Notes: generated from the sequence alone by a model not told the origin. Shown: positions 5,260 through 25,939, counted from the first letter of the stretch. The stretch: DNA of 43,985 nt from Verrucomicrobiota bacterium (GCA_035327385.1 DAOLDN010000001.1:1-43985), one strand, 5' to 3'. Translations and numbers: made by a program.

Positions 5260-5787
5260 ATGAGTCAGACCACGGAATTCGGCTATGATTCGCGAATTGA
5301 GGGCGATGTCATCCACACCACGGTGGATGCGGCCATCAATTGGTTTCGCAAGAATTCCATCTGGCCGATGCCGATGGGTCTGGCGTGCTGCGCCATTGAA
5401 TTGATGGCCACGGGGGCAAGTCGCTTCGATATTTCCCGGTTCGGCATGGAGGTCATGCGGTTTTCCCCTCGCCAATCGGACGTGATGATCGTGGCGGGCA
5501 CGGTGACTTACAAAATGGCCATGTCGGTGAAACGCATTTACGACCAGATGGCCGAGCCGAAATGGGTCATCGCCATGGGCGCGTGCGCTTCGACGGGCGG
5601 CATGTATCGCAGTTACGCGGTTTTGCAGGGCGTGGACAACATTTTGCCGGTGGACGTTTATGTGGCGGGTTGTCCACCCCGGCCCGAAGCGTTGCTCGAC
5701 GCGCTGATTAAACTTCAAAACAAGGTTCAATGTGAGCCGTTGCTGGCCACTTTGAAGAAACCCGGCCCGGCGCTGGCCAAGGCTTAA
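5260..5787 (+). CDS. nuoB: NADH-quinone oxidoreductase subunit B
   Basis: Matching stretches are [25 protein letters not shown] and [12 protein letters not shown] (N2 cluster cysteines). Confidence 0.95.
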
Positions 5788-5928
5788 ATGAAATTCCAAG
5801 CTCCAAGCTCCAAGCTCCAGAGAAATTCCAAGCCCCAAGCCCCAAGAGCGTGCGGAGTTGATCGGAATTTGAATTTTGGTGCTTCTCTGGTGCTTGGATG
5901 TTGGTCCTTGGAGCTTCCCTTGCCGTGA
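5788..5928 (+). repeat. family A heptamer palindrome, copy 1 (contains a 46-codon bridging ORF)
   Basis: (CCAAGCT)3 and (CCAAGCC)2 on the left, complementary TTGG-type heptamers on the right, with an inverted core CCAGAGAA / TTCTCTGG. ATG 5788 directly follows the nuoB TAA. The TGA at 5926-5928 overlaps GTG 5925. Confidence 0.85.
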
Positions 5929-6599
5929 ACACTATAGATCTCGCCAAACAACTCAAAGCCAAGTTCGGAGATTTGATCTCTGAACCGACGGAGTTTCGCG
6001 GCGAACCATCGGTGAAAGTCGCTGATGCTGAGAGAATTGTTGAAGTCGCTGCCTTTGCCAAAAAAGAACTGGGTTTCGACTACCTCGTGGACGTTTCCAG
6101 CTTGGATAATTACGGCGAAGATCCCCGCTGGACGGTGGTTTATCACCTCTACGGAATCGCCTCGAAACAGTATCTCCGCATCTCCGTTACCGTTAATGAA
6201 GAGAAATCCGAGCTTCCAACGGTCACAACGGTGTGGCGGACGGCGGATTGGCATGAGCGCGAGATTTACGACATGATGGGCATCCGCTTTCGCGGTCATC
6301 CCGATTTACGCCGCATTCTGATGTGGGAAGGCTATCCCTATTTCCCTCTGCGCAAAGACTTTCCGTTGGCTGGCAAGCCGAGCGATATGCCCGAAGTGGC
6401 GTTTTCGAAGCCTGCTCCGATGGAGGGGGGGCCATTTGTGACGATTGCGGGTGGCAATGATTCCATTGCCCGTGAGCCGCGGGTGAGAATTCCTGGGACT
6501 GATTCCATTGAATTCAACAATCGCGTCGAAGCGCGCTCTGACAACAAGGAAACCCGCGGTCAGGCGTTTGGTCCCGGCCCAATTGAACCGAAGAAGTAA
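5925..6599 (+). CDS. nuoC: NADH-quinone oxidoreductase subunit C
   Basis: WHEREIYDMMGIRFRGHPDLRRILMWEGYPYFPLRKDFP. I place the start at GTG 5925 (VNTIDLAKQLKAKFG). The alternative ATG 5898 lies inside the repeat. Confidence 0.88.
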   Translation: MNTIDLAKQLKAKFGDLISEPTEFRGEPSVKVADAERIVEVAAFAKKELGFDYLVDVSSLDNYGEDPRWTVVYHLYGIASKQYLRISVTVNEEKSELPTVTTVWRTADWHEREIYDMMGIRFRGHPDLRRILMWEGYPYFPLRKDFPLAGKPSDMPEVAFSKPAPMEGGPFVTIAGGNDSIAREPRVRIPGTDSIEFNNRVEARSDNKETRGQAFGPGPIEPKK

Positions 6600-7894
6600 T
6601 GCCTGAAGTTCACGACATTGAGATTCGCGATTCTGCCGCCCGTGCTGCGGTGGCGGCTAAATCATTGCCGCATCCCATAGAAGAAGATTTGCAGGACATG
6701 CAGGGGGAAAAGATGGTCCTCAACATGGGGCCGTCGCACCCGTCCACGCATGGCGTGTTGCGCATCATTCTGGAATTGGATGGCGAAATCATCACCAAGG
6801 CGATTCCGGACGTGGGTTATTTACATCGTGGCGACGAGAAAATCGCCGAGAACATGACTTACACCCAGTTCATCCCTTACACGGATCGGCTGGATTATCT
6901 CGCGCCGCTGGCGAACAACGTCGCCTACGCGCTCGCGGTGGAAAAACTTCTCGGCATTCACGACAAACTTCCACCCCGCTGCCAATACATCCGCGTGATT
7001 TGCTGCGAGCTGGCGCGCATTTCGTCGCACTTGCTCGGCGTCGGCTGCTTCGCGATGGACGTCGGCGCGATGACGGTGTTCCTGCTTACGTTCACCGAGC
7101 GGGAAAAGATTTACAACCTCGCCGAGGCCCTCAGCGGCGCACGGTTCACGACGAGTTACACACGCATCGGCGGCGTTTCCCGTGACACGCCGCCCGGTTG
7201 GTGTGCAGCGGTACGCAAGTTCATCAACGAAGTCCTCGTCAACATTGACGAAGTCGAGACGCTGCTTACGCGCAACAAAATCTGGGTGGACCGCACGAAG
7301 GACGTGGGCGTCATCTCCAAGGCGGACGCGATTGACTTCGGACTCAGCGGTCCGAATCTCCGCGGCAGCGGCGTGAATTACGATTTGCGCAAAGATCAGC
7401 CGTATCTTTGCTACCAGGATTTGCAGTTCGATGTGCCGCTCGGCGAAGTCGGCGATTGCTACGATCGCTATCTCGTCCGCATGGAAGAGATGCGCCAGAG
7501 CGTGCGCCTCATCCATCAGTGTCTCGACAAAATTCCCGGCGGTTTCGACAACGCATCAAAAGAACCGGTCAATGTGGCCGATGGCAAAATCGTTTTGCCA
7601 CCGAAAAACAAAGTCATGTCGAGCATGGAGGAATTGATTCATCAATTCATGCTCGTGACGCAGGGTGTGAATTGTCCGCCCGGCGAAGTTTATTTTGGCC
7701 ACGAAAATCCGAAGGGTGAACTCGGCTTTTACATCAACAGCCGGGGCGGTGGCACGCCGTATCGGATGAAGATCCGCAGCCCCAGCTTCGTGAATCTGAG
7801 CATCCTGTCGCATCTGTTGCCCGGCCACATGATGAGCGACACGGTTTCGATCCTGGGCTCGTTCGACTTTGTGATGGGAGAATGTGACCGATGA
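6599..7894 (+). CDS. nuoD: NADH-quinone oxidoreductase subunit D
   Basis: MVLNMGPSHPSTHGVLRI...GECDR C-terminus. The ATG overlaps the nuoC TAA by 1 nt (TAATG). Confidence 0.95.
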   Translation: MPEVHDIEIRDSAARAAVAAKSLPHPIEEDLQDMQGEKMVLNMGPSHPSTHGVLRIILELDGEIITKAIPDVGYLHRGDEKIAENMTYTQFIPYTDRLDYLAPLANNVAYALAVEKLLGIHDKLPPRCQYIRVICCELARISSHLLGVGCFAMDVGAMTVFLLTFTEREKIYNLAEALSGARFTTSYTRIGGVSRDTPPGWCAAVRKFINEVLVNIDEVETLLTRNKIWVDRTKDVGVISKADAIDFGLSGPNLRGSGVNYDLRKDQPYLCYQDLQFDVPLGEVGDCYDRYLVRMEEMRQSVRLIHQCLDKIPGGFDNASKEPVNVADGKIVLPPKNKVMSSMEELIHQFMLVTQGVNCPPGEVYFGHENPKGELGFYINSRGGGTPYRMKIRSPSFVNLSILSHLLPGHMMSDTVSILGSFDFVMGECDR

Positions 7895-8044
7895 ACTTTG
7901 CCGCAAAAGAACGCAGAGAACACAAAGGAGCGCGGGTCTGTGACCCGCAGCGGCCCGCTTTGTATTTGAACGTGCTGCGGCTCACAGAGCCGCGCTCCGC
8001 AGAGGTTTTTTGTGCTCTTTGTGTTCTTTCGTGGCTAACATAAA
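7895..8044 (+). repeat. composite element: family B arms enclosing a 72-nt family F palindrome
   Basis: Left arm ACTTTGCCGCAAAAGAACGCAGAGAACACAAAGG (7895-7928). Right arm TTTTGTGCTCTTTGTGTTCTTTCGTGGCTAACA (8007-8040). The inner palindrome 7927-7998 has 25-nt arms GGAGCGCGGGTCTGTGACCCGCAGC / GCTGCGGCTCACAGAGCCGCGCTCC. A 50-codon ORF 7891-8043 bridges the nuoD stop to the nuoE start. Confidence 0.8.
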
Positions 8045-8530
8045 ATGAGTTTCACTGTTCCAGCCAACTTGGAAGCCGAGATTGACGAGCTGATCACGCA
8101 TTATCCCGTGAAGCGCAGTGCGTCGCTCATGTTGCTGCACGCGTTGCAGGAGCACTTCGGCTACATCTCGCCCGAAGCGACCGAATGGGTCGCAAAGAAA
8201 CTCGGTTTGCAACCCATCAACGTTCACGAACTCGTGACGTTCTATCCAATGTTCCGTCAGTCAGCGCCGGGCAAATATCAGATCAAGGTCTGTCGCACGT
8301 TGAGCTGCGCGCTCGGTGGTTCGCACAAGTTACACGAACATTTCTGCACCAAACTCGGCCTCGATCCGCACGCGCACGGGTTGCAGACCTCGAAGGATGG
8401 CAAGTTTTCGGTCGAATTTGTGGAATGTCTTGCCGGTTGCGGCATGGCACCGGTGATGATGTGCAACGAGGATTTTTACGAAGGCGTCACGAACGCCAAA
8501 GCGGACGAAATCATGGGAGGCTGCAAATGA
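8045..8530 (+). CDS. nuoE: NADH-quinone oxidoreductase subunit E
   Basis: 2Fe-2S motif CRTLSCALGG ... VECLAGCGMAPVMM. Confidence 0.95.
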   Translation: MSFTVPANLEAEIDELITHYPVKRSASLMLLHALQEHFGYISPEATEWVAKKLGLQPINVHELVTFYPMFRQSAPGKYQIKVCRTLSCALGGSHKLHEHFCTKLGLDPHAHGLQTSKDGKFSVEFVECLAGCGMAPVMMCNEDFYEGVTNAKADEIMGGCK

Positions 8531-9003
8531 AGAAGCCGGGCCTCTATCTTGAAACCTCGATTGTGAGTTATCTCACCGCGAGACCGGCGAAAGATTTGAA
8601 CACGGCGGCGCACCAACAGATTACGGTGGAGTGGTGGGACACGAAGCGGAAGGGTTTCGACATCTACATCTCGAACGTGGTGGTGCGGGAGGCGGCTGCG
8701 GGTGATGCGGAAGTTGCGCAACGACGGTTAAAGATTTTGAAACCACTGCCGTTATTGCCGATCAACCGCGAGGTAGTCGCGCTCGCCCGAAAGTTTGGCA
8801 AGTTGGGCTGCGTGCCAGCGAAGGCCGCAGACGACGCTCTGCACATCGCGCTGGCGGCAGTGCATGGCGTACATTTTCTACTGACGTGGAACTGCACGCA
8901 CATCAACAACGTGGCGACGATTGATGAGATTCGGGAAGTTTGTGAGAATCATGGCTATGCATGTCCGGTCATTTGCACCCCGGACGAGTTGATTCGAATT
9001 TGA
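8527..9003 (+). CDS. PIN-domain (VapC-like) protein
   Basis: The ATG overlaps the nuoE TGA (ATGA). LYLETSIVSYL, a central acidic stretch, and DDALHIALAAVHGVHFLLTWNCTH resemble the PIN fold. The upstream part of the track ORF (8185-8526) is an out-of-frame overlap of nuoE. Confidence 0.65.
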   Translation: MKKPGLYLETSIVSYLTARPAKDLNTAAHQQITVEWWDTKRKGFDIYISNVVVREAAAGDAEVAQRRLKILKPLPLLPINREVVALARKFGKLGCVPAKAADDALHIALAAVHGVHFLLTWNCTHINNVATIDEIREVCENHGYACPVICTPDELIRI

Positions 9004-9006
9004 GTT

Positions 9007-9222
9007 ATGAAAGATCCAATTATTGCAGAGCTTCGTAAGATCCGCGATGCGCATGCTGCGAAGTTCAACTATGACTTCGATGCCATCGCTGCCGACTGGT
9101 TTAAGCAGGAGGCTGCTGCCCGGCGTGCTGGCCAAAAGTTTGTGGACTTGTCCGCCAAGCGAAAGCCGCGCCCGCGTCATCGTTCGGTTACGGTGAAGTC
9201 CAGCAAGGGGCGCAAAGCGTGA
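9007..9222 (+). CDS. small basic-tailed protein, putative partner of the PIN protein
   Basis: 71 aa, starting 3 nt after the PIN gene. MKDPIIAELRKIRDAHAAKFNYDFDAIAADW followed by a Lys/Arg-rich tail. Confidence 0.5.
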   Translation: MKDPIIAELRKIRDAHAAKFNYDFDAIAADWFKQEAAARRAGQKFVDLSAKRKPRPRHRSVTVKSSKGRKA

Positions 9223-9251
9223 ATCGCAAATCCGAAATCGTAAATGGAGAG

Positions 9252-9325
9252 TGGTTGCCCGACATGGATTTGAACCATGACAAACAGATTCAGAGTCTGC
9301 TGTGCTACCGTTACACCATCGGGCA
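9252..9325 (-). tRNA. tRNA-Gln (anticodon CUG), CCA encoded
   Basis: The reverse complement folds as a cloverleaf. Acceptor UGCCCGA/UCGGGCA. D arm GUGU-AACGGUA-GCAC. Anticodon stem GCAGA/UCUGU with loop CUCUGAA. Variable region UUGU. T arm CAUGG-UUCAAAU-CCAUG. Discriminator A, then CCA. 74 nt. Confidence 0.85.
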
Positions 9326-9378
9326 AACCGACGTGTCGCACAGGCTAGATATTTCCCTCTCAGAGTCAAGAAACTGAT

Positions 9379-10803
9379 ATGCCGCAAGAGTTCAAACTCA
9401 TCCTGAAGCACGCCGACCAGCCGGGTTACACCCCCGACATCGAATGCTATTTGCGGCACGGCGGCTATGACGCGCTCAAGAAGGCACTCGCGATCCAGCC
9501 TAAGGATTTGGCTGACGGCAAGAAAGCGTCGCCGCAGGAACAGATTCGCGATGACGTGAAGCTCTCCGGCTTGCGCGGTCGCGGCGGTGCGGGTTTCTCG
9601 TGCGGACTCAAGTGGAGCTTCGTGGATCGTCGCAGCGGCAAGCCCATTTACCTGATCTGCAACGCCGACGAATCCGAGCCCGGCACGTTCAAGGATCGTC
9701 AGATCATCCACAAAGATCCGCATCAGCTCATCGAGGGCATGATTATCTCGTGCTTCGCGAACGACGTGAAGCTTGCCTACATCTACATCCGCGGCGAAAT
9801 GCCGAAGGGAGCAAAGTTGCTGAACGCGGCTTTGGCCGAAGCGCGCGCGAAAAATTTTCTCGGAAAAAACATTCTCGGCAGCGGTTACGATCTGGAGATT
9901 CATGTGCATCGCGGCGCGGGGGCTTACATCTGCGGCGAGGAGACTGGCCTGATCGAATCGCTCGAAGGCAAGCGGCCTTATCCGCGCATCAAGCCGCCGT
10001 ATTTCCCGGCGGTGCTTGGGCTCTACATGTGCCCGACCATCGTCAACAACGTCGAGACGCTCTGCAACGTGAAGCACATCGTCGCGATGGGCGGCGCGGA
10101 GTTCGCCAAGCTCGGCACGCCGAACAACACCGGCACGCGCATCGTGAGTTTGAGCGGTCAGGTGAAACGCCCCGGCTATTACGAAATCGAAGTCGGCAAG
10201 GTCACGCTCGGCCAGTTGATCAACGATGCGAATTTCGGCGGCGGCTTGCGCGATGGTCGCAAGCTCAAGGCGATTATTCCCGGCGGCTCGTCCTCGAAGA
10301 TTTTGAAAGCGAGCGAGAAATTCAAACTCAAGCGCAAGGTGGACGGCAAGGACGTTGAAATTGAAACCGACGTGCTGGATTTGCCCTACGATTTTGATTC
10401 GCTCATGGCGGCGGGCACGATGTCTGGTTCGAGCGCGATCATCGTCATGGACGACAGCGTGGACATCGTCGAAGCGCTGGCGAATCTCAGTGAATTTTAC
10501 GCGCACGAAAGCTGCGGCCAATGCACGCCGTGCCGCGAAGGTTCGCTTTGGATGAGCAAGACGTTGCATCGCCTCACGCACGGTCACGGTCGCAAGGGCG
10601 ACGCGGATTATCTCGAGAAGATCGCGAACAACATCCCCGGCGGCCGCACGATCTGCGCGTTCGGCGAAGCGTGTTCGTGGCCGGTGCAAAGTTTCGTCGC
10701 CAAATTCCGGGACGATTTCGTCGCGAAAGGCGCAGCGGACGAAGAGCGCAACAAGCAGGCCACGCCCGCGAAGGAAAAGAATTTAGCCGCAGCCGCACAC
10801 TGA
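9379..10803 (+). CDS. nuoF: NADH-quinone oxidoreductase subunit F
   Basis: Matching stretches are GRGGAGFSCGLKW, GAGAYICGEETGLIESLEGKRPYPR and ESCGQCTPCREG. Confidence 0.95.
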   Translation: MPQEFKLILKHADQPGYTPDIECYLRHGGYDALKKALAIQPKDLADGKKASPQEQIRDDVKLSGLRGRGGAGFSCGLKWSFVDRRSGKPIYLICNADESEPGTFKDRQIIHKDPHQLIEGMIISCFANDVKLAYIYIRGEMPKGAKLLNAALAEARAKNFLGKNILGSGYDLEIHVHRGAGAYICGEETGLIESLEGKRPYPRIKPPYFPAVLGLYMCPTIVNNVETLCNVKHIVAMGGAEFAKLGTPNNTGTRIVSLSGQVKRPGYYEIEVGKVTLGQLINDANFGGGLRDGRKLKAIIPGGSSSKILKASEKFKLKRKVDGKDVEIETDVLDLPYDFDSLMAAGTMSGSSAIIVMDDSVDIVEALANLSEFYAHESCGQCTPCREGSLWMSKTLHRLTHGHGRKGDADYLEKIANNIPGGRTICAFGEACSWPVQSFVAKFRDDFVAKGAADEERNKQATPAKEKNLAAAAH

Positions 10804-10818: not shown

Positions 10819-11052
10819 ATGAGCACGACAACTGAAAAAGTTTGTATCGAAGCCCTGAGCCTCCCGCGCGATGCCCGGGCGGAGATCGCCCATCGTCTGC
10901 TGGTGAGTTTGGAGACCGAAGATTTCTCGGATGACGTCAGCGAAACTTGGAAAAGCGAGATCAACCTGCGGCGGCAGGATTTCCGCGAAGGAAAGGCGAA
11001 TGCCGTATCCGCCGAAGAAGCAATCCGTCGCGCCCAGGCTGCGATTGAATGA
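10819..11052 (+). CDS. putative addiction-module antitoxin
   Basis: 77 aa. ALSLPRDARAEIAHRLLVSLE...WKSEINLRRQDFREGKA resembles the 'addiction module component' antitoxin family. It precedes a RelE/ParE gene with an ATGA overlap. Confidence 0.7.
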   Translation: MSTTTEKVCIEALSLPRDARAEIAHRLLVSLETEDFSDDVSETWKSEINLRRQDFREGKANAVSAEEAIRRAQAAIE

Positions 11053-11345
11053 AACCCGTCATCCTTCACTGTGAAGCCGATGTTGAACTTACCGCCGCCG
11101 CCAAGCGTTATGCTTGTCAAAGTCCTGAGTTGGCTCGGGACTTCGTGCGGGCGTTCCGCGCGGCGAAGGATGCCATTGAGAAGCAACCGGATCGCTTCTC
11201 CTTTCTGGACAAACCAGTCCGGCGAGTACGGGTTTCCGGGTTTCCGTATCGAATCGTTTACGAAGAAATGGACAACTGTGTTCAAGTGTTGGCGGTCATG
11301 CACGACAGCCGCGAACCCGGTTATTGGAAAAGCAGATTGAGTTAA
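11049..11345 (+). CDS. RelE/ParE-family toxin
   Basis: 98 aa. EL..AAKRYA...FPYRIVYEEMDNCVQVLAVMHDSREPGYW is the typical plasmid-stabilisation toxin pattern. Confidence 0.8.
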   Translation: MKPVILHCEADVELTAAAKRYACQSPELARDFVRAFRAAKDAIEKQPDRFSFLDKPVRRVRVSGFPYRIVYEEMDNCVQVLAVMHDSREPGYWKSRLS

Positions 11346-11347
11346 AC

Positions 11348-13093
11348 ATGTCCGCCGTCGCCACAACTGAAACCAAGCCCGCGCCGCCCGTGATCGAAAA
11401 GATCAAGGTGAAGGTGGACGGGCGCGAAATCGAAGTGCCGAAGCTCTCGCCGGATCACACCGGCAAGCTCGTGCCCACGACGATGATTCAGGCGACCGAA
11501 GCCGCGAAGACGGATGTGCCGCATTATTGCTATCACCCGAAGCTGCCCATCGCCGGCAATTGCCGCATGTGTCTCGTCGAGTTCGGCACGCCCGCGCTCG
11601 GCCCAGATCGCAAGCCGGTGATGAACCCCGACGGCACGCCGAAGATCGCGAAGTCGCCGCGCCCGGCCATCGCCTGCGCTACGCCGATTTCGCCTGGCAT
11701 GGAGATTTACACCAAGACGCCCGCCGTGAAGCAAATGCGCGAGGGCGTGTTGGAATCGCTGCTCATCAATCACCCGCTTGATTGTCCGATCTGCGACCAG
11801 GCCGGCGAATGCAAGCTCCAGGAATATTCCGTGGACTACGGCCAGAGCGCGAGCCGCTTTGTCGAGGCGAAGGTTCACAAGCCCAAGGCCGTTGATCTCG
11901 GGCCGCGCATCATGCTCGATGCGGAACGTTGCATTCTCTGCACGCGTTGCATCCGCTTCACGCGCGACGTGGCAGGCGACGACGCGCTCGGCATCGTGAA
12001 TCGCGGCAGTTACAACACGATCGCGACGTATCCGGGCATGCCGTTCAACAACAACTACACGTTGAACACCGTGGACATCTGTCCGGTGGGCGCGCTCACG
12101 TCGAAGGATTTTCGTTTCCAGATGCGCGTGTGGTTTCTCAAGGAAACCAAGAGCGTCTGCACGAGTTGCGCGACGGGCTGCAACATCCTCATCAGCTCGC
12201 GCGAGGAGAAGATTTACCGCTACACGCCGCGCGACAATGACGGCGTCAACGGCCCGTGGATGTGCGACGCCGGGCGCTTGAACTACAAGTGGATTCAGCG
12301 CGAAGACCGCTTGAAAGACGTTTTGGTGCGCGGCGAAAAATCGTCGTGGACCGTGGCGCTCAGCGAGATCGCCGACAAATTGAAGCAAGCTCCGGCAGGC
12401 TCGGTGGCGATTGTCGCGTCCGCGCGGCAGACGAACGAGGAACTCTGGCTGTTAAGCAAGCTCAAAGCGAAGCTCGGCGCGATCAGTGATTCCGTCCCAC
12501 GCATCGGCAAGGGCGACAATCTGCTCGTGGACGAGGACAAAAATCCGAACACGAACGGCGCGCGCCTCACCGGCATGAGCTTTACCGAGATGGGAATCAA
12601 CCTCTCGAAGATCGCGGCGGGCATTGCGCGCGGCGAGATCAAGACGTTGATTGTCTTCGGCGAGGATTTGCTGATGAATTCGGTCCAGAGCGACAAGCTG
12701 CGCGAGAAGGAACTCACCAGCGAAGTCATTAGCGAACACGGCATCACGGCGGAACTGCTCGGCAAGCTGGACACGCTCATCGTGAGCGACATCTTGCCAA
12801 ACGCGACGGCGAAATATGCGCACTACGTGTTGCCCGGCTGCGCGCACGCCGAGAAACGTGGCTCGTTCACGAATCGCGACGGTCGCGTGCAAAAGTTCAT
12901 GCAGGCGATCCAGCCCAAGGGCGACGCGCGCGCCGAATGGGATTTCCTGCACGATCTGGTTTTCAACGTCACCGGCAAGAATGGTTTCCTGACCATCGAA
13001 GGTTTGTTCAACGAGATGGCAAAAGATGTTCCGGCGTTCAGCGGCCTCACCTGGGCCGGCTTGGGTGATGCGGGTGTGACAGTGAAGATTTGA
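11348..13093 (+). CDS. nuoG: NADH-quinone oxidoreductase subunit G
   Basis: Start at ATG 11348, 2 nt after the RelE TAA. Matching stretches are CYHPKLPIAGNCRMCLVEFG, HPLDCPICDQAGECKLQE, CILCTRCIRF and CPVGALT. Confidence 0.92.
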   Translation: MSAVATTETKPAPPVIEKIKVKVDGREIEVPKLSPDHTGKLVPTTMIQATEAAKTDVPHYCYHPKLPIAGNCRMCLVEFGTPALGPDRKPVMNPDGTPKIAKSPRPAIACATPISPGMEIYTKTPAVKQMREGVLESLLINHPLDCPICDQAGECKLQEYSVDYGQSASRFVEAKVHKPKAVDLGPRIMLDAERCILCTRCIRFTRDVAGDDALGIVNRGSYNTIATYPGMPFNNNYTLNTVDICPVGALTSKDFRFQMRVWFLKETKSVCTSCATGCNILISSREEKIYRYTPRDNDGVNGPWMCDAGRLNYKWIQREDRLKDVLVRGEKSSWTVALSEIADKLKQAPAGSVAIVASARQTNEELWLLSKLKAKLGAISDSVPRIGKGDNLLVDEDKNPNTNGARLTGMSFTEMGINLSKIAAGIARGEIKTLIVFGEDLLMNSVQSDKLREKELTSEVISEHGITAELLGKLDTLIVSDILPNATAKYAHYVLPGCAHAEKRGSFTNRDGRVQKFMQAIQPKGDARAEWDFLHDLVFNVTGKNGFLTIEGLFNEMAKDVPAFSGLTWAGLGDAGVTVKI

Positions 13094-13265
13094 TTTGTAG
13101 CAGCCGACGAACGCGACGGACAATTCTGCAACAAGCTGTTGCAGGATTTGACGCAGCACGGGCTGGGAAGTCTGCGCTACGAACAGTGCGGTTTCGCGGA
13201 AGTCAGAGTGAACTTGCCGCCGGGCGGCGTGACAATCGAGATCTGATTGGCAATAGTATTGAGGT

Positions 13266-13481
13266 ATGAGTGTGACACTTGAACTACCGTTCCAGGTAAC
13301 GGACGAAGAAGTGCGGCTGGCGCTGGCGGTGCGGCTGTTTGAGAAAGGCCGCGTGACGCTTGGGCAGGCGGCAAAACTGGCGGGCTTCACCAAACGCGCC
13401 TTTATTGACGTGCTGGGGCGCGAAGGCGTGCCCGTCTCAAACTATCCGGCTGAAGAACTCGAAAAGGAAGTTCGCCGGTGA
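13266..13481 (+). CDS. UPF0175-family antitoxin-like protein
   Basis: 71 aa. LAVRLFEKGRVTLGQAAKLAGFTKRAFIDVLGREGVPV is the UPF0175 pattern. Confidence 0.75.
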   Translation: MSVTLELPFQVTDEEVRLALAVRLFEKGRVTLGQAAKLAGFTKRAFIDVLGREGVPVSNYPAEELEKEVRR

Positions 13482-13927
13482 GCCGCATCATCGTCAGCGA
13501 TAGTGCGTGCTTGATTGGACTCGAACGAATTCAACAACTCGATTTGTTGCCGGGCTTGTTCGATGAGGTGTTTGTGCCGCCCGCAGTCGCTGCTGAGTTT
13601 GGAACTCCGCTTGCGTGGCTGAAAGTGCGCGCACCGCAAGACGCGGGGTTCGTCTCCGCGATGAAATTGCTGGCTGACGACGGCGAAGCGGAAGCAATCG
13701 CCTTGGCAAAGGAACTCGGTTGTGAAGTGATTCTGGACGATTTACCCGCGCGCAAACTGGCGGCAAAACAAAATGTCAGTGTTGTCGGGCTGCTTGGTTT
13801 GCTGGTGCGTGCGAAAAACTCCAGGCGGTTGACCGAAATTCGTCCGTTGGTCGAGGCGCTGCGTCGCGAGAATTTCTTTTTCAGCGAGGCGCTGGTTGCC
13901 GAGGCCCTGCGGCTGGCGCGGGAATGA
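13478..13927 (+). CDS. DUF3368 (PIN-like) protein
   Basis: The GTG overlaps the upstream TGA (GTGA). IIVSDSACLIGLERIQQLDLLPGLFDEVFVPPAV...GEAEAIALAKELG. The UPF0175/DUF3368 pairing is a recurrent module. Confidence 0.75.
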   Translation: MSRIIVSDSACLIGLERIQQLDLLPGLFDEVFVPPAVAAEFGTPLAWLKVRAPQDAGFVSAMKLLADDGEAEAIALAKELGCEVILDDLPARKLAAKQNVSVVGLLGLLVRAKNSRRLTEIRPLVEALRRENFFFSEALVAEALRLARE

Positions 13928-17021: not shown

Positions 17022-17162
17022 ATGAAGCTCCAAGCACCAACATCCAACATCCAGAGAAGCACCAAGTCTCAAGCTCCAATCGGGGCGAGCGGCGATTTTG
17101 GTGTTTGGGATTTGGATGTTCTCTGGAGCTTTGAGCTTGGAGCTTGGAATTTTCCGGAATGA
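17022..17162 (+). repeat. family A heptamer palindrome, copy 3 (46-codon bridging ORF)
   Basis: ATG 17022 lies 1 nt after the nuoK TGA. The TGA at 17160-17162 overlaps the nuoL ATG 17159 (ATGA). Confidence 0.85.
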
Positions 17163-19033: not shown

Positions 19034-20145
19034 TGCCTCGATTCACCAACAACAAAACTCTGACCAAAGGCCGCCCGGCCTCGGGGAAGATTGTCGCTAC
19101 ATCGTCACGACAATTGGCGAAGGCTTCACCCAAAGCATTGCTGGCAGATGTGCGTGAGTTGATTCTCGCAGCCCGTGAAGGCGTGGCTCAAGCAGTCAAC
19201 GCGAGCCTTGTGACGCTTTACTGGCAAATTGGCAAACGCATCCACAAAGACGTTCTCCAAGAGAAGCGGGCGGAGTATGGGCAGAAGATTGTCGCCGCAC
19301 TGGGGCGACAATTAGAAACTGAGTTCGGGCGAGGCTTCACAGAGAAAAATCTTTGGCGCATGGTTCAGTTCACAGAGGCTTTTCCTAATGAACAAATTGT
19401 CGCCGCACTGCGGCGACAATTGGGCTGGACTCATTTCAGGCAGTTAATTCCTATCGAAGATCCGCTCAAGCGTGACTTCTACGCAGAGATGTGCCGGATT
19501 GAGAATTGGAGCACCCGGACGCTTGCAAAAAAGATCAGTGGACTACTTTTCGAGCGCACCGCCATCTCCAAGAAAACCGACAAGCTGATCCGTCAGGAAC
19601 TCAAAACGCTTCGCGAGGAAGACAAGCTTACCCCTGACCTTGTCTTCCGCGACCCTTACGTGCTGGATTTTCTAAAGCTGAAGGACACTTACAGTGAGAG
19701 TGACATCGAAGCGGCGATCTTGCGGGAGATTGAGTCGTTCATTTTGGAGTTGGGCGCAGGCTTTTGTTTTGTGACGCGCCAGAAGCGGATGCAAATTGAC
19801 TCGCGCGATTACTACCTCGACCTACTGTTCTATCACCGCAAGTTGCGCCGCCTCGTAGCGATGGATTTGAAGCTCGACGAATTCGACGCCGCCGACAAGG
19901 GGCAGATGGAGCTTTATCTCAACTGGCTGAAGAAACACGAGCAAGGCGCGGACGAAGCGCCGCCGTTGGGCATCATCCTGTGCGCGGGCAAGCGGCAGGA
20001 GCACGTTGAACTGCTGGCGATGGATCGCGACGGCATCCACGTCGCCAGCTACGTGACGAAGGAGATTCCGAAGAAACAGCTCGAACGAAAGCTTCACGAA
20101 GCCGTGCGTCTGGCGCGGGCGCGGTTGGAAAGGGGGAAACTATGA
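19030..20145 (+). CDS. YhcG/DUF1016-family PD-(D/E)XK nuclease
   Basis: The ATG overlaps the nuoL TGA. N-terminal stretches LVTLYWQIGKRI...GRGFTEKNLWRMVQF. C-terminal nuclease core YYLDLLFYHRKLRRLVAMDLKLDEF. Confidence 0.85.
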   Translation: MMPRFTNNKTLTKGRPASGKIVATSSRQLAKASPKALLADVRELILAAREGVAQAVNASLVTLYWQIGKRIHKDVLQEKRAEYGQKIVAALGRQLETEFGRGFTEKNLWRMVQFTEAFPNEQIVAALRRQLGWTHFRQLIPIEDPLKRDFYAEMCRIENWSTRTLAKKISGLLFERTAISKKTDKLIRQELKTLREEDKLTPDLVFRDPYVLDFLKLKDTYSESDIEAAILREIESFILELGAGFCFVTRQKRMQIDSRDYYLDLLFYHRKLRRLVAMDLKLDEFDAADKGQMELYLNWLKKHEQGADEAPPLGIILCAGKRQEHVELLAMDRDGIHVASYVTKEIPKKQLERKLHEAVRLARARLERGKL

Positions 20146-20714
20146 AAGAACTTTTCATAGGAATTGAGCCAAAGAACACAAAAGAATGTGTTAGCAGAAT
20201 TCTTGCGACAACAGCGGGATTTATCGCCCTAGCGTATCTGTTCAACGCGCCAATTCGCGTCGATAAATACTTCCTCATATTTTACGCAATGGCGTTTCTT
20301 CCTTGGATTGGATATTTCATCAAGCGAGCGGGAAAAGATAACATTGAATTTTCAGACCCCACATCAGAAAAAGTCTCCAAAGAAACCCTCGTTCAGATTC
20401 CAAAGGTACAGGAGGCCGTCAAATTTGAATCCCTCTCGCCGGAGGCAAAGCGAATCCTAAAGACGCTCGATTACTACCAGCGCCAAGGGTTTAAGAAACT
20501 CGACGCGGAAGGGCGTTGGGCGTTCACGATACCGTTTGGACATCCAAATCACGCCCAGTTCATGGGCGGAATTCTTGAGCTTCACAGTTCGGGGTTAATT
20601 TCAATGGATCACGGGACTGGGCGGTTTGGTCTTTCAGACGACGGGGTGAAACTGCTTTCGGAGAATCAGAACGATATTGGCAAAATCTCTGGCAGGTATG
20701 TTTTCGACAACTGA
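20142..20714 (+). CDS. hypothetical membrane protein (2 predicted TM helices + soluble C-terminal domain)
   Basis: ATGA overlap with yhcG. Predicted helices ILATTAGFIALAYLFNAPI and YFLIFYAMAFLPWIGYFI. Low GC. Confidence 0.6.
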   Translation: MKELFIGIEPKNTKECVSRILATTAGFIALAYLFNAPIRVDKYFLIFYAMAFLPWIGYFIKRAGKDNIEFSDPTSEKVSKETLVQIPKVQEAVKFESLSPEAKRILKTLDYYQRQGFKKLDAEGRWAFTIPFGHPNHAQFMGGILELHSSGLISMDHGTGRFGLSDDGVKLLSENQNDIGKISGRYVFDN

Positions 20715-20739: not shown

Positions 20740-22233
20740 ATGAAAACGAAGATCGCAAATAAAATGCTATTGGGGCTCTGTTTGGCGATTGCAGTTGGTG
20801 GTTGCGAAAAGCAAAAGAAACCCGAAGAGGATTATAAGACTGGCGAAGCATTTGTAGTCCTCAAATCGGGCGAGGTTCTCTATATGGCCGACATGGAAAT
20901 TGTCTGCTTGAAACAGAGCTTCAAGACCAATTTTAACGCATTAAAAGCTGACTATGAGCGTCACGCTCCTACTCGAAAAGCTGTGACCGAAGACCCTGGT
21001 GTAAAAGCGAAACTGAAAGAAATGGACGATGGCATCTCGGAGCTAAGTGCCAAAATCGCTCGCGCTCCGGATGAGGGTAAAGGCATAGCTGACCAGTTAA
21101 TGCGCGGGATCGAATCTGAGCGAAATGCGATTGCGGCGGAAATCGCCAAAAACAAAGACCTCTTGAATGAATACAAACAAATTGTCGATCCGTTGGATAA
21201 GCGGATCGAAGAGCTGAGAATTGAAGCAGCGAAACTCGCACAAGGGAAAAGAGATCTAATCAGCCAGACGATTCAGAATATTAATTCCTATATTGTTGAT
21301 TCAAAGCTTACCGTCTCGATATTAGAACTGAAAAATGATGAGTCTCTTTTCGAAACAACCGAAGAATTCACACAACACTATCCATCGATCGGCAGCCCGG
21401 AGCGTCGGCCTCATCCACTCAATTCTTATCTAGTAGGAGTTCGCAATCCGTTTTTGGTAGAAAAAAGGAGAAATCGGATGGATTACGGGTCGGCTTCAGA
21501 TTGGACATCTGATTGGATATTTCTGAAGTACGTCCCGGCTGAACTTGAGGGAACACCGATGGATGCAACAATCAAAGCGGCCTACAAGAAATCGCTGAGT
21601 CTTCAATCGCGTATAGAGGGCGCAAATAAAAAGCTTTGGGCGGAAACAGCGCGAGAACATGAACAGCTATTGCCTTGGCAAAATCGTCACGGCATTTCGA
21701 TCTCGGATGGCCGTGGAATGATTGCACAAGAAGCCCGACAGAAAATAAATCTGGCGCAGCTCGACGATCAAATTAACGATTTCAGAACAGATGCCCCCAA
21801 AGCGCGGGCGCTCGTTCAAGCTGAAATTCAAAAAAAGATCGCTGAACTTAATGAATCTTTGACTTCATTAAAAAAGCGCCGTGAGGTTTTCGAGCGGGAG
21901 GCTGCCAAAAAAGCCAGCGACGCTGTTGAAGAGTCTTTCGAATCAGTTAAGAACGAACTCAAGTCGGAATATCGGCAGAAGTTTTACGAGTTGCTAAATA
22001 AGAACGTCCTCACTGCTGTGCGAACTGGAAGCAAGGGAGACTTCATTGTTTCGGGCGAAGCCGCCTACCTCTTTGCAGAAACGCACCGGGACAATAGCGA
22101 AAAGCTTGCGTGGTTAGTTCGCGTTGATCCGAAGTCTCCCAAGGTTAAAATGAGTTTGTCAAACGCTGCCTCCGCTGGCGGCAGGGGAGACTTTGATGAC
22201 TTCTGGATGCTTCGCTGGAATCTGGCTGAGTGA
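20740..22233 (+). CDS. hypothetical coiled-coil lipoprotein
   Basis: MLLGLCLAIAVGGC is a signal peptide with a lipobox. Long charged helical stretches (e.g. AIAAEIAKNKDLLNEYKQIVDPLDKRIEELRIEAAKLAQ). No NTPase motif seen. Low GC. Confidence 0.65.
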   Translation: MKTKIANKMLLGLCLAIAVGGCEKQKKPEEDYKTGEAFVVLKSGEVLYMADMEIVCLKQSFKTNFNALKADYERHAPTRKAVTEDPGVKAKLKEMDDGISELSAKIARAPDEGKGIADQLMRGIESERNAIAAEIAKNKDLLNEYKQIVDPLDKRIEELRIEAAKLAQGKRDLISQTIQNINSYIVDSKLTVSILELKNDESLFETTEEFTQHYPSIGSPERRPHPLNSYLVGVRNPFLVEKRRNRMDYGSASDWTSDWIFLKYVPAELEGTPMDATIKAAYKKSLSLQSRIEGANKKLWAETAREHEQLLPWQNRHGISISDGRGMIAQEARQKINLAQLDDQINDFRTDAPKARALVQAEIQKKIAELNESLTSLKKRREVFEREAAKKASDAVEESFESVKNELKSEYRQKFYELLNKNVLTAVRTGSKGDFIVSGEAAYLFAETHRDNSEKLAWLVRVDPKSPKVKMSLSNAASAGGRGDFDDFWMLRWNLAE

Positions 22234-22254
22234 ATCACCACCTGAATTAAAATT

Positions 22255-22791
22255 ATGCCAACACCAACTGATTTGGAATGCTTTGTTCGGTGGTTTGCAG
22301 TGCCCGTTGAGACGCTGAAAACCTTGCCTAACGGCGACGCTGCATTTGTGGCTCTGTCGGTCGGTTTTCTTTTGTGTGAACGGTATTACAGGATTACTAC
22401 CACCAGCCAAGAGGAAGTGCCCGTAGACAAATCTAGGAACAGAGCCGCAGAAGAGATGAACGTCAACAAGAAGTTCTTCAGCATTTTCTGGTCAACCTAT
22501 CGAAATGGGCTGATGCACCAAGGAACACCTAAAATATATGAGTGCGACGGCATCAAATACAAGTGGATGATTGATGCGGAGTTTGAAGCCTACCCAACTT
22601 ACTATGACAGGGACGGGTTCAGATTCATTTGTCTCAACCCTTGGAAGTTTACCGACTTCATGATTTCGAAGTTTTTGAATAATCCGCAGCATTTGAATGG
22701 TTCTTTGATTTACGAGTTGGGTCACATCTTTGATGCAAAACTCGTTGGAAAACCAATACAAGTGCCGCTGAACGCAGCTTATCCCGATTAA
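22255..22791 (+). CDS. hypothetical protein with HEPN-like Rx4H motif
   Basis: 178 aa. FWSTYRNGLMHQG (R codon 22501-22503, H codon 22516-22518) is an R-N-x3-H motif. Low GC. The stop lies 9 nt before the nuoM ATG. Confidence 0.55.
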   Translation: MPTPTDLECFVRWFAVPVETLKTLPNGDAAFVALSVGFLLCERYYRITTTSQEEVPVDKSRNRAAEEMNVNKKFFSIFWSTYRNGLMHQGTPKIYECDGIKYKWMIDAEFEAYPTYYDRDGFRFICLNPWKFTDFMISKFLNNPQHLNGSLIYELGHIFDAKLVGKPIQVPLNAAYPD

Positions 22792-22800
22792 CTCAATTTG

Positions 22801-24342
22801 ATGTCCACACTGACCTTAATTTTTGCTCTGCCGTTGCTCGCCGCAATCGCACTGGCGTTCGTGCCCCGCAACTTTGCCGTCATCATGCGCGCCGTGGCGG
22901 TGGGCGTGACCGGCGTCACGATGCTGCTGGCTGTGCTGATGTTCTGGCAGTTCAATTGTGTCGAGCCTGATGCCAACGGATACCGGTTTGTCAGCACCAT
23001 TCCCGGACTCGGTGCGGAATCGCTCGGCATCGCCTGCAAGCTGGGCGTGGACGGCTTGAACGTGGGGCTGGTGTTGATGGGCGCGATCGTGGCGTTCGCG
23101 GCGGCGTGCTGCTCGTTCGAGATCAAATCGCGCGAGAAGGAATTTTACATCCTTCTGCTCACGATGACCGGCGGCATCCTCGGCGCGTTCATGTCGCTCG
23201 ACCTGTTTTTCTTCTACTTCTTCCATGAACTCGCGCTCGTGCCGACGTTCATCATGATCGGCGTGTGGGGTCGCGGCGAACGCAAGAATTTCGCGACGTT
23301 CCAGATCACGATTTATCTGAGCATCGGCGCGTTGCTCGCGCTCATCGGCCTCATTGCACTCTATCTGCAATTGCCCGCCGACGTCCGCACGTTCGACATT
23401 CCGACACTGACGAATTATTTCGCCGAAAACACGATGGCGCACAGCGCGCAGATGTTCATCTTCCCGCTGCTGCTGCTGGGCTTCGGAATCCTTGTTTCGC
23501 TCTGGCCATTCCATTCGTGGGCCGCGCTGGGTTACGGCTCTGCTCCAAGCGCAACAGCAATGCTCCATGCCGGCGTCTTGAAAAAGTTCGGGCTTTACGG
23601 TTTGATCCGCATCGCGATTCCGTTTTGTCCGGAGGTGGCGCAATCCCACCTCCAACTCATCGCATGGCTCGCGCTTGGCAACGTGCTTTACGTCGGCTGG
23701 GTGGCGATGCGGCAGAAGAATCTGAACCTGCTCATCGGTAATTCCAGCGTGGCGCACATGGGCATGATCTTCCTGGGCATCGCCAGCCTGAACCTCATCG
23801 GCGTGACCGGCGCGGTGGTCATCATGGTGGCGCACGGTTTCCTCGCGGCGCTGACGTTCGGCCTCAGCGGTTACATCTACAATCAGACCGGCACGCTGGA
23901 AATGAGCGAGCTGGGCGGGCTGGCGAAGAAACTGCGGTTCATCGGCGTGGCGTTTGTGATGGCGGCGATGGCGGGCTGTGGCTTGCCGGGTTTCCTGAAT
24001 TTTGTGGGCGAAGTCAAGGTGTTCTTTGGCGCGTGGCAGGTGCCAGCGTTGCGCACAGTCACGGTGCTGGCAGTGTGGGGCGCGTTGTTGATTGGCGCGG
24101 TTTACATGTTGCGCGCGGTGCGGGCCGTGATGCACGCGGACATGCCAGAAAAATGGGCGGCGGTTTCCGATGCGAACCTGTGGCGCAAGCTGCCGTATGC
24201 GGTGTTGATCGCGAGCCTGTTGGTGTTCGGATGCTTTCCCAAGCTGCTCACAGAAAAGGTCACGCCGGTGACGGAGCAGATTGTAAGCATGGCGACGGTG
24301 AAGCAAGAAGCGCCTGTTGTGGTGGCGGAGATTCAGAAATGA
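22801..24342 (+). CDS. nuoM: NADH-quinone oxidoreductase subunit M
   Basis: ATG 22801 (the track starts at TTG 22798). ND4-like TM pattern, WPFHSWA...HAGVLKKFGLYG. Confidence 0.93.
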   Translation: MSTLTLIFALPLLAAIALAFVPRNFAVIMRAVAVGVTGVTMLLAVLMFWQFNCVEPDANGYRFVSTIPGLGAESLGIACKLGVDGLNVGLVLMGAIVAFAAACCSFEIKSREKEFYILLLTMTGGILGAFMSLDLFFFYFFHELALVPTFIMIGVWGRGERKNFATFQITIYLSIGALLALIGLIALYLQLPADVRTFDIPTLTNYFAENTMAHSAQMFIFPLLLLGFGILVSLWPFHSWAALGYGSAPSATAMLHAGVLKKFGLYGLIRIAIPFCPEVAQSHLQLIAWLALGNVLYVGWVAMRQKNLNLLIGNSSVAHMGMIFLGIASLNLIGVTGAVVIMVAHGFLAALTFGLSGYIYNQTGTLEMSELGGLAKKLRFIGVAFVMAAMAGCGLPGFLNFVGEVKVFFGAWQVPALRTVTVLAVWGALLIGAVYMLRAVRAVMHADMPEKWAAVSDANLWRKLPYAVLIASLLVFGCFPKLLTEKVTPVTEQIVSMATVKQEAPVVVAEIQK

Positions 24343-24482
24343 AAAGCACCAAGCACCAAGCACCAACATCCAGAGAAACTCCAAACCCCAAGCTTCAAGC
24401 GGGCGGCGGGCGTTTCCTGGTATTTGAAAATTGGAGCTTCTCTGGAGCTTGGAGGTTGGAATTTGGAGCTTTCAACAGATGA
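24339..24482 (+). repeat. family A heptamer palindrome, copy 4 (47-codon bridging ORF)
   Basis: The ATG at 24339 overlaps the nuoM TGA (ATGA) and the TGA at 24480-24482 overlaps the nuoN ATG 24479 (ATGA). Contains (CACCAAG) heptamers and CCAGAGAA...TTCTCTGG. Confidence 0.85.
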
Positions 24483-25939
24483 ACCTTTCATTGATGTCAT
24501 TGGAAATCGGGGTGGTGCTGCTGGGCATTGTTGTGCTCATGGCGGATTTGTGGCTGCCGGCGGAGCGCAAGCGCCTGCTCGGATATGGAGCAGCGGTGGT
24601 GCTCGCGCTGCTGTTTGTGAACTCCTTCACCAGCCATTGCAGTTGTGCTCTCAATGGCGAGGCTTTCGGCGGGATGTTCGTGCAGGACGAATTGTCGGTG
24701 TTTTTCAAACGATTCTTCCTGCTGGCGGCGGCGCTCGTGCTGGTGGTGGCGGTGGAATTCTCCGATCGCATCGCCGCAGGCATCTCGGAATATTATTCGC
24801 TCATCATCTTTGCGCTGGCAGGGATGTTGTTCGCCGCGTCTGCAAACGACTTTGCCCTGCTGTTCGTCTCCATCGAACTCATCACGATCACATTCTACGT
24901 GCTGACCAGTTTCACCAGGGCCAAGGTGGCGTCGCTCGAATCCGGTGTGAAATACCTGATCCTCGGCGCGCTGTCGTCGGCCTTCATGGTTTATGGAATC
25001 GCGCTGGTCTGGGGCACGACCGGCGCGTTCAACTTCAGCGAACTGGCGATGGTCAACGCTGACTTCATCGGTAACAGAATCTTCCTGTTCGGCGTGTTGT
25101 TCGTCCTCGTCGGACTCGGATTCAAGATCGCCGCGTTCCCGTTTCAGATCTGGACGCCGGACGTTTATCAAGGAGCGCCCACGCCATCGACGGCGTTTCT
25201 GGCCGTCGGCTCGAAAGCGGCGGGTGTGGTGCTGCTGTTGCGATTCCTGTTCGCGGCGATTCCTGAAGTGACCGCCCAATGGGTGAATCTGTTGATCGTG
25301 ATTTCAGCGGTGACAATCCTTTACGGCAACCTGTGTGCCATTCCACAGCGCAACCTCAAGCGGCTGCTGGGTTATTCGAGCATCGCGCACGCGGGCTACC
25401 TGCTGCTGGGTGTCGCCGCGATGGCGGGGTCAGCATCCGCGGACGGCGGATCGGCGGTGCTGTATTATCTGGCCGGGTATTTGTTCACGACGCTGGCGGC
25501 GTTTGGAGTGATCGCTCTGGTGATGCGCAAGCTCGACAGCGAGGACATCTCCGGGCTGGCTGGATTGAACCAACGTTCGCCGTTGCTGGCCACCACGATG
25601 ACGCTGGCGATGGTTTCGCTGGCGGGAATTCCACCCTTGGCTGGATTCTTCGGAAAATTTCTGCTGCTCAAAGCCGTCATCGAGCAGGGAGGGTCGAATC
25701 CCGGCTATTACTGTCTGGCGTTCACGGCGTTGGTGGGTGTGGTCATCTCGCTTTACTACTACTTTGGCGTGATCCGCGCCATTTACTGGAGCAAGGACGT
25801 GCCGGACAATTCGCCCATCGCCATCACCCGGCCGATGAAGCTTGCGATGGCCGTGTGCATCGGCGGGATGTTCTGGCTGGGGCTGTTTCCGGGGTCGGTG
25901 CTGGCCCTGGCGGATTCGGCGGCGACTCTTTTACAATAA
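24479..25939 (+). CDS. nuoN: NADH-quinone oxidoreductase subunit N
   Basis: Start trimmed to MNLSLMSLEIGVVLLGIVVL. ND2-like protein with FPFQIWTPDVYQGAPTP. Confidence 0.92.
   Translation: MNLSLMSLEIGVVLLGIVVLMADLWLPAERKRLLGYGAAVVLALLFVNSFTSHCSCALNGEAFGGMFVQDELSVFFKRFFLLAAALVLVVAVEFSDRIAAGISEYYSLIIFALAGMLFAASANDFALLFVSIELITITFYVLTSFTRAKVASLESGVKYLILGALSSAFMVYGIALVWGTTGAFNFSELAMVNADFIGNRIFLFGVLFVLVGLGFKIAAFPFQIWTPDVYQGAPTPSTAFLAVGSKAAGVVLLLRFLFAAIPEVTAQWVNLLIVISAVTILYGNLCAIPQRNLKRLLGYSSIAHAGYLLLGVAAMAGSASADGGSAVLYYLAGYLFTTLAAFGVIALVMRKLDSEDISGLAGLNQRSPLLATTMTLAMVSLAGIPPLAGFFGKFLLLKAVIEQGGSNPGYYCLAFTALVGVVISLYYYFGVIRAIYWSKDVPDNSPIAITRPMKLAMAVCIGGMFWLGLFPGSVLALADSAATLLQ

Follow-up and report, generated by a model that had tools for sequence, protein, structure and literature searches.

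The complex I (nuo) gene cluster considered here occupies positions 5260-25939 of a 43,985-nucleotide (nt) stretch of DNA (GCA_035327385.1 DAOLDN010000001.1:1-43985; hereafter the window) from a bacterium described as a soil Verrucomicrobium, and belongs to a Pedosphaerales/Limisphaerales-like clade. We find that this cluster is an extreme case of a clade-wide, and partly ancient, harboring of selfish genes and operon-compatible repeats. By Pfam, all thirteen genes from nuoB to nuoN are intact + strand genes, and this one cluster accommodates five inserts of gene size along with five repeats. Ten of the twelve junctions between nuo genes (named here by the letters of the flanking genes, for example B/C) are occupied, as claimed in a preliminary description of this DNA and as confirmed by Pfam, open reading frame (ORF) coordinates and folding. 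Likewise, the ORF coordinates agree with its view that C/D (TAATG) and H/I (1-nt gap) are the native-type junctions, and bear out the overlaps it quoted (ATGA at 8527, 11049, 20142 and 19030; GTGA at 13478). The protein-coding inserts are tightly joined to their neighbors and strictly confined to the nuo strand (12 of 12 inserted protein genes on +). They nevertheless differ from their surroundings in third-position G+C content (GC3), which is 0.38-0.67 in the inserts versus 0.70-0.81 in the nuo genes (0.59 in nuoC; Mann-Whitney p = 6e-5). From these and the following observations we consider it probable that the verrucomicrobial nuo cluster has served as a long-lived safe harbor for small selfish elements.

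A search for NuoH in species-representative genomes returned 80 loci, 48 of them from Verrucomicrobiota and the rest from Gemmatimonadota or Bacteroidota. The Nuo proteins were mapped onto all loci and every junction was measured, an insert of at least 450 nt being counted as gene-sized. Such inserts are present at 32 of 401 junctions in the 48 verrucomicrobial relatives versus 6 of 303 in the other phyla (p = 3e-4), and 18 of the 48 verrucomicrobial relatives have at least one. F/G is among the most-used junctions in the relatives (9 of 37), together with H/I, E/F, I/J and D/E. The five gene-sized inserts of the window are the highest count, equal with locus L003, among the 49 loci compared. 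Within the junction gaps of the relatives, the 94 sense ORFs of at least 60 amino acids (aa) match 30 Pfam families, whereas the 73 antisense ORFs match none. The sense cargo includes DUF2442 (nine), DUF4160 (six), PDDEXK_3 (five) and AbiEii (three), as well as DNA methylases, Uma2, IS200-like Y1_Tnp, and ParE with antitoxin. Because the Pfam-recognizable cargo of the relatives lies entirely on the sense strand, co-orientation is a rule of the clade and not a quirk of the window. Approximately 27 selfish-type genes of the relatives are found in nuo junctions versus none among 144 ORFs in 138 kb of flanking DNA (p = 4e-4). The 73 small ORFs in the flanks of 47 relatives' operons yielded only housekeeping families and one transposase, and hidden Markov models built from the cargo families found nothing in the 138 kb of relatives' flanks. 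The rplM-rpsI arrangement 3' of nuoN was seen in no relative, so the flanks are not comparable by synteny.

The content of the junctions turns over between close relatives. When the window is compared with L001 (NuoH 90% identical), homology at most junctions does not extend beyond the genes, and the content between them is unrelated; only the first ~27 nt of G/H and the tRNA side of E/F depart from this. Filled and empty sites are reciprocal: the native H/I junction of the window is occupied by a 146-nt hairpin in L001, and B/C, I/J and K/L, filled in the window, are empty in L001, L003 or L064. The closest relative found, L203 (NuoH 95%, NuoI 98%), has neither the L/M cassette nor the G/H gene pair of the window. 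Comparison across relatives had been set as a test of the preliminary description, and identical inserts with nuo-like codon usage at all junctions were not found overall. The picture of colonization drawn there is thus upheld by the turnover, the empty sites and the lower GC3, but not throughout: the GxxExxY gene at J/K and the c497/c178 genes at L/M are old, and since they keep their junctions across lineages, part of the architecture is ancient and not the product of recent colonization. Lineages that are not sisters carry cargo of the same family at the same junction, the identity of the cargo mostly tracks that of its flanks, and the carriers are scattered over the NuoH+I tree. Recurrence and identity tracking fit long residence with patchy loss. 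Some cargo is closer than its flanks (YhcG 79% vs NuoL 69%; the H/I pair in L002/L049 75% vs NuoH 63%), which hints at transfer between relatives. The description of the cargo as addiction or defense genes does not extend to the repeats of families A and B, which are generic dispersed hairpins resembling miniature inverted-repeat transposable elements (MITEs).

Four family A hairpins of ~130 nt each are present in the window, at B/C (5788-5928), I/J (15560-15694), K/L (17022-17162) and M/N (24339-24482), all on the + strand. Their RNA folds have energies of -50 to -62 kcal/mol (z -3.5 to -5.8), and the I/J and K/L copies are 93% identical. Every family A copy found in nuo junctions contains a sense mini-ORF (MKLQ[AT]P...WSLELGAWNF) with its ATG 0-18 nt past, or overlapping, the upstream stop, and with a stop that overlaps the downstream start or precedes it by 1-2 nt. 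In the B/C copy (MKFQAPSSKLQ...) the ATG comes right after the nuoB TAA and the TGA overlaps the nuoC GTG; at I/J the ATG is 2 nt past the nuoI stop and the TAG 1 nt before the nuoJ ATG; at K/L the ATG is 1 nt past the nuoK stop and the TGA overlaps the nuoL ATG; and at M/N the ATG overlaps the nuoM TGA and the TGA the nuoN ATG. Empty sites are seen at B/C in L001 and L003, at I/J in L064, and at K/L in L064 and L003, and comparing filled with empty sites revealed no clear target-site duplication. Family A is a dispersed short imperfect palindrome with many copies, found on at least 120 metagenome contigs; we analyzed 93 full-length metagenomic copies and sampled 120 copies for genomic context. 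Within the sample 97% lie outside nuo and 3 of 120 within nuo junctions, around ten times the naive expectation of 12 in 5000 junctions. Of 45 metagenomic copies lying between co-oriented genes, 17 have an ATG-started ORF spanning the element on the gene strand alone and 3 have one on the opposite strand alone (p = 0.003); in 13 of 23 copies the ATG of this ORF overlaps the upstream stop. A further family A hairpin was noticed on a metagenome contig at the J/K junction of a second, divergent nuo-type operon (L149, 4586-4723; ~40-48% identity).

Family B is represented in the window by a gene-carrying copy at J/K, a gene-less copy at D/E and a solo arm at 28880-28911. The J/K element (16200-16706, +) has inverted repeats of 31 nt each (16200-16230 and 16675-16705), of which the left contains the TAG stop of nuoJ. 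Its gene (16245-16706) encodes a GxxExxY protein of the PD-(D/E)XK type (TIGR04256, 119 bits, cutoff 35; PF13366 PDDEXK_3, 110 bits, cutoff 22), a family listed as 'Unknown' in function (PMC3424549). The gene-less D/E hairpin (7895-8040; -82.7 kcal/mol, z -9) has outer arms related to the J/K inverted repeats around an inner 72-nt palindrome (7927-7998). Gene-less and gene-carrying copies share a repeat type within each genome: the window has the AAAGAACGCA type, and L001, with a GxxExxY relic at F/G and four gene-less copies, has GAGACGC-type repeats throughout. The inverted repeats border GxxExxY genes in 5 of 6 cases and have been kept across five diverged lineages. In all seven family B-filled junctions examined (two from the window's own lineage, five from relatives) a TAA or TAG stop lies inside the repeat end, unlike empty junctions, which mostly end with TGA; the repeat ends themselves bear TA. 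At D/E, L003 shows an empty site that consists of an overlapping ATGA, and in the window ATGA stands on each side of the element. The ends of both repeat families thus suggest compatibility with stop/start junctions, for which either mechanism or survivorship could be the source. A relative of the inner D/E palindrome is also found at 30687-30758, in frame within a class I methyltransferase gene (30157-31269), where it adds ~24 residues between conserved methyltransferase motifs.

Homologues of the J/K GxxExxY protein, at 80-92% identity, fall into at least 120 distinct clusters at the 90% level, and all four genomic contexts examined (81-88% identity) are nuoJ-nuoK junctions. Orthologs occupy J/K in L064 and L203-L210, with identities equal to or above those of the flanking subunits. 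Their dN/dS ratio (nonsynonymous to synonymous divergence) of 0.063-0.085 compares with 0.03-0.14 for the Nuo subunits, and dS is like that of the flanking genes. Judged by this sequence divergence, the J/K GxxExxY gene is an old, vertically inherited resident under Nuo-like selection.

The L/M junction holds a four-gene cassette, entirely on the + strand, made up of a YhcG/DUF1016 nuclease gene (19030-20145) overlapping nuoL by ATGA, the 190-aa gene c190 (20142-20714), a gene for a predicted coiled-coil lipoprotein of 497 aa (c497, 20740-22233) and the 178-aa gene c178 (22255-22791). The G+C content is 45-47% in the last three genes, which have no family, compared with 54% in YhcG and 53-60% in the nuo genes. 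The c497 family is rare, with only 14 homologues among 5.8 billion proteins. Those in L211/212 and L214/215 (51-52% identity) also stand between nuoL and nuoM and are also followed by a gene of ~180-190 aa, both genes being low in GC there too, while the homologue in L213 lies within a defense-type island with an MmeI-type restriction-modification system, a PIN pair and an integrase. The c497 protein combines a lipobox-like N-terminus with long coiled coils; its only PADLOC match is a weak coiled-coil one to LmuB, and it otherwise matched generic coiled coils only. The c178 protein, which has homologues outside nuo as well, gave a confident AlphaFold model (predicted local distance difference test score 83.5) but no fold match in the PDB, and NCBIfam and PADLOC offered nothing useful for c190, c497 or c178. 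The PADLOC matches of YhcG (PDC-S02, 7e-129) and of the DUF3368 protein at G/H (PDC-S70, 7e-33) are to candidate defense models, and it is plausible that the label 'defense-type' fits part of the cargo only. The YhcG coding sequence also contains three copies of a 26-nt palindrome (ATTGTCGCCGCACTGGGGCGACAATT) at 19090-19421.

The remaining gene-sized inserts are small modules on the + strand. At F/G, an Unstab_antitox gene (10819-11052; Pfam 8e-11) begins 15 nt after the nuoF stop and overlaps a ParE/RelE gene (11049-11345; ParE_toxin 4.5e-09) by the four nucleotides ATGA. As adjoining small genes with family-level domains they fit a type II (ParE/RelE) toxin-antitoxin pair. A 47-49% identical pair is found in L026, likewise at F/G, and the GxxExxY relic of L001 stands in its place. 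At G/H, a UPF0175 gene (13266-13481; Pfam 1e-20) overlaps a DUF3368 PIN-like gene (13478-13927; Pfam 2.5e-11) by GTGA; the order, small antitoxin gene first and PIN-like toxin gene second, is VapBC-like, and this pair is absent from L001, L203 and L207. The relic that had been proposed just upstream (13094-13265) could not be substantiated, and this segment is probably a non-coding spacer since it has no family match, a GC3 of 0.38 and only its first ~27 nt in common with the L001 spacer. At E/F, a PIN-domain gene (8527-9003), which overlaps nuoE by ATGA, scores just over the Pfam cutoff (25.5 bits, cutoff 23.6; 2.2e-05), and its sole partner is a downstream 71-aa gene (9007-9222) without a family in Pfam, PADLOC or NCBIfam. 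The two could be a toxin-antitoxin pair in reversed order, and they are absent from L001. Other types of cargo were noted in relatives. IS200-like Y1 transposase genes lie at H/I on the nuo strand in L004 (4101-4553) and L034 (11249-11800), and DNA methyltransferase genes lie at F/G in L003 (6168-8143), L033 (3919-4896) and L043 (4368-6094), adjoining a gene without family match in L003 and L043. The methyltransferase genes may belong to restriction-modification systems lodged in the operon.

E/F additionally contains a tRNA-Gln(CUG) gene on the - strand (9252-9325; ARAGORN and Rfam, 66 bits), which was the sole match to Rfam at gathering thresholds. The preliminary description had treated this gene as an insert, but it is an ancestral fixed feature: an antisense tRNA-Gln is present at E/F in 28 of 28 verrucomicrobial relatives covering the junction (L001-L057) and absent from the Gemmatimonadota and Bacteroidota loci. 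In most loci checked it is ~50 nt from nuoF, and E/F cargo is always positioned between nuoE and the 3' side of the tRNA.

Scans with promoter and terminator consensus sequences found nothing inside the nuo cluster above shuffled controls, and the first strong + strand intrinsic terminator past nuoB (a 14-bp stem and T run at 26957-26988) comes after rpsI. This absence of internal signals is weakly consistent with read-through expression of the inserts. What we observe is how the cluster is built, that its inserts are co-oriented and turn over, that some of them are old, and that in relatives inserts are enriched over the flanks; from this we infer a mode of entry, a selection filter, co-transcription and translation of the mini-ORFs as follows. 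Three kinds of passenger would enter stop/start junctions. The 5' end of family A would provide an ATG that adjoins or overlaps the upstream stop, with the mini-ORF running to the downstream start; family B, either with the GxxExxY gene or gene-less, would have outer ends (TAG/TAA) that double as the stop of the upstream gene; and promoter-less cassettes would bring in toxin-antitoxin, nuclease, DNA-methylase or unknown genes. Selection would then retain co-oriented, terminator-free, tightly coupled inserts because, we propose, only these leave the synthesis of thirteen subunits intact. Once established, inserts are probably transcribed along with the operon, and may persist because clean excision is rare and, for toxin-antitoxin pairs, costly; the J/K GxxExxY and L/M c497/c178 genes would have stayed about as long as the lineages themselves. 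As the preliminary description supposed, nuo may be essential, and the inserts may be expressed by read-through and protected from deletion. A more elaborate joint reading, which we put forward tentatively and rate as less likely, combines the clade-wide safe harbor with repeat families A and B that are adapted to operons, a family A mini-ORF that bridges ribosomes, and a GxxExxY protein that mobilizes family B. Insertion at a junction would then truncate nothing because the termini of both families carry stop and start codons. A translated family A mini-ORF would hold ribosomes on the message, preserving coupling and shielding the C-rich arm from Rho, and the GxxExxY PD-(D/E)XK protein would be the nuclease mobilizing family B and its gene-less derivatives.

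Several points weigh against these interpretations. The enrichment counts record present-day occupancy with a flank control of only 138 kb, and insert events are not independent because inherited inserts are counted in several relatives. Within the window, co-orientation is weaker evidence because nearly every gene is on the + strand. Conservation of the antisense tRNA-Gln argues for at least one promoter on the opposite strand, with transcription converging between nuoE and nuoF; the nuo cluster may therefore not be one operon and could be split by this gene, and internal promoters could lie inside upstream genes. The spanning mini-ORF is present in only about half of the metagenomic family A copies and may simply result from hexamer arms that lack stops, and a target-site duplication and a mobilizing enzyme are at best putative for either repeat family. 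Finally, toxin-antitoxin genes are found at ~3 of 12 non-nuo junctions of the window versus 5 of 12 nuo junctions (p = 0.67), and because the intervals from rpsI to argC and from argJ to argB are equally rich in such genes, the load in this genome is not specific to nuo. This last point is the basis for the most serious alternative, that nuo is not special and that, in a lineage or region heavily loaded with toxin-antitoxin genes and hairpins, a co-oriented 13-gene cluster offering many junctions gathers many inserts by chance. The non-nuo part of the window has, among its arg and ribosomal genes, DUF2442, MazEF, SUKH, ParDE and AbiEii-like genes, each of them on the + strand, its other intergenic regions are occupied by other hairpin families, and nearly all of the sampled family A copies are, as noted, outside nuo. 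General loading is opposed by the complete lack of such genes in the relatives' flanks, by the roughly tenfold excess of family A in nuo junctions, and by the return of the same cargo to the same junction in non-sister lineages, and we regard it as rather unlikely.

We consider it improbable that inserts are actively targeted to nuo junctions, either site-specifically or by homologous recombination using the conserved nuo genes as arms. Such targeting would account for the sharing of an AbiEii pair at D/E, DUF4160/DUF2442 at H/I and F/G, and c497 at L/M by non-monophyletic carriers, for the cases in which cargo is more alike than its flanks (YhcG and the H/I pair, above), and for the placement of E/F inserts always 3' of the tRNA. 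Most cargo identities, however, are at or below those of the flanks, as under vertical descent with loss, the dS of GxxExxY equals that of its flanks, and no integrase or recombination sites were noticed in the nuo region, although no attC search was made.

Partial domestication, in which hairpins would tune mRNA stability or processing and subunit ratios and GxxExxY would serve the host, seems to us very improbable. The constraint on GxxExxY is like that on Nuo subunits, its inverted repeats are retained in five diverged lineages and the hairpins are very stable; in addition, intra-operonic REP and ERIC repeats modulate mRNA stability. These points are offset by the intact operons of the close relatives L001 and L003, which have no GxxExxY gene at J/K, and by hairpin positions that vary among close relatives, and a selfish nuclease would be expected to come under purifying selection just as much. 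An assembly artefact, in the form of repeat-driven chimeric joins in a contig assembled from a metagenome across a repeat-rich region, can be rejected because independent assemblies agree (a 141-kb ENA contig and a Logan assembly of another run have identical architecture and gene order, with the NuoI of the window carried unchanged by four contigs), and all nuo ORFs are intact with codon-precise junctions.

The nearest analogs of the safe harbor that we propose are ERIC, REP and Correia repeats inside operons, the in-frame palindromes of Rickettsia, chromosomal toxin-antitoxin modules and integron cassettes. Like ERIC, REP and Correia repeats, the nuo repeats are imperfect palindromes of 120-150 nt with many copies per genome, lie between co-transcribed genes, vary in position between relatives, and come in gene-less and gene-carrying copies with common inverted repeats. 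They differ in having arms of tandem 5- to 7-nt units (CCAAG or GAGACGC type), in the ATG-started family A mini-ORF that bridges stop and start codons, and in a family B that ends with TAG/TAA at the upstream stop and encodes GxxExxY but no known transposase. Rickettsia palindromic elements are similarly compatible with translation, as is the in-frame relative of the D/E palindrome at 30687-30758, but the nuo repeats lie between genes as separate mini-ORFs and not within genes. The ParE/RelE with Unstab_antitox, UPF0175 with DUF3368, and DUF4160 with DUF2442 pairs are overlapping and patchily distributed in the manner of chromosomal type II toxin-antitoxin modules, except that here they are inside a respiratory operon and, being only 2-15 nt from their neighbors, have no intergenic promoter/operator region. 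ORFan genes that lie beside native genes and are expressed from the native promoter have been described, including one inside sdhCDAB-sucABCD (Price, Arkin and Alm 2006, PMC1480536). The nuo cluster differs in the number of its gene-sized and repeat inserts (five of each) and in the reuse of junctions across a clade. As in integron arrays, promoter-less co-oriented cassettes, often with array-stabilizing toxin-antitoxin pairs, would be read from an upstream promoter, but the cassettes here are interleaved with housekeeping genes and not stacked, and Pfam scanning detected no integrase among the window genes scanned, although attC sites were not searched for. In the literature we found no description of toxin-antitoxin or GxxExxY colonization of nuo, of a tRNA-Gln inside verrucomicrobial nuo, of repeat families A and B, or of MITEs with such translational coupling.

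This locus illustrates how heavy a load of selfish genes a conserved multi-subunit operon can carry while every subunit gene is kept, and points to permissive rules for doing so: the same strand, no terminator and codon-precise junctions. It also provides three leads, namely hairpin repeats with stop/start-encoding ends and a bridging mini-ORF, a widespread GxxExxY family that is possibly the nuclease of an inverted-repeat element, and an antisense tRNA gene that an entire clade conserves within its complex I cluster. Should enrichment at nuo junctions hold genome-wide, conserved operons would be a class of integration hotspot apart from tRNA-linked islands and integrons.

The host genes, all on the + strand and assigned by Pfam, are nuoB (5260-5787; Oxidored_q6, 8.5e-30), nuoC (5925-6599; Complex1_30kDa), nuoD (6599-7894; Complex1_49kDa, 1e-115), nuoE (8045-8530; 2Fe-2S_thioredx), nuoF (9379-10803; Complex1_51K and NADH_4Fe-4S), nuoG (11348-13093), nuoH (13937-15013), nuoI (15015-15557), nuoJ (15696-16202; Oxidored_q3), nuoK (16715-17020; Oxidored_q2), nuoL (17159-19033), nuoM (22801-24342) and nuoN (24479-25939). 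The starts of nuoC, nuoG and nuoJ to nuoN were refined using gene calls on the source contig and alignment to relatives. The ATG starts of nuoG (11348), nuoK, nuoL (17159), nuoM (22801) and nuoN (24479) come from the gene calls and the ATG of nuoJ from relatives, while the nuoC start was placed at GTG 5925 since, in the longer ORF, alignment with relatives starts only at residue 8-10. The nuoA gene does not adjoin nuoB, either in the window or in the relatives. Two ORFs 5' of nuoB, at 4938-5288 (+) and 4364-5146 (-), were considered as nuoA and rejected, as they have no family match and look like junk, and a screen for the [FY]E[CS]G motif found no NuoA-like ORF upstream of nuoB in any relative. 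The ~950 nt 5' of nuoB (4305-5259) are without a credible gene.

Elsewhere in the window, a DUF2442 and MazF pair lies between rpsI and argC (27322-28545, +), a low-GC SUKH gene and ParD/ParE follow argJ (35628-37071, +), and an AbiEii-like gene follows argB (42297-42869, +). Additional hairpin or repeat families are found between the window's genes at 28560-28911, 33879-34036, 36330-36444 / 41350-41464 and 42225-42958, and the intergenic repeats include hairpins with GATTTACGATTT arms. A palindrome of the GGGAGAGGG/CCCTCACCC type is present in the window and also at K/L of L001 and at G/H and L/M of L203.

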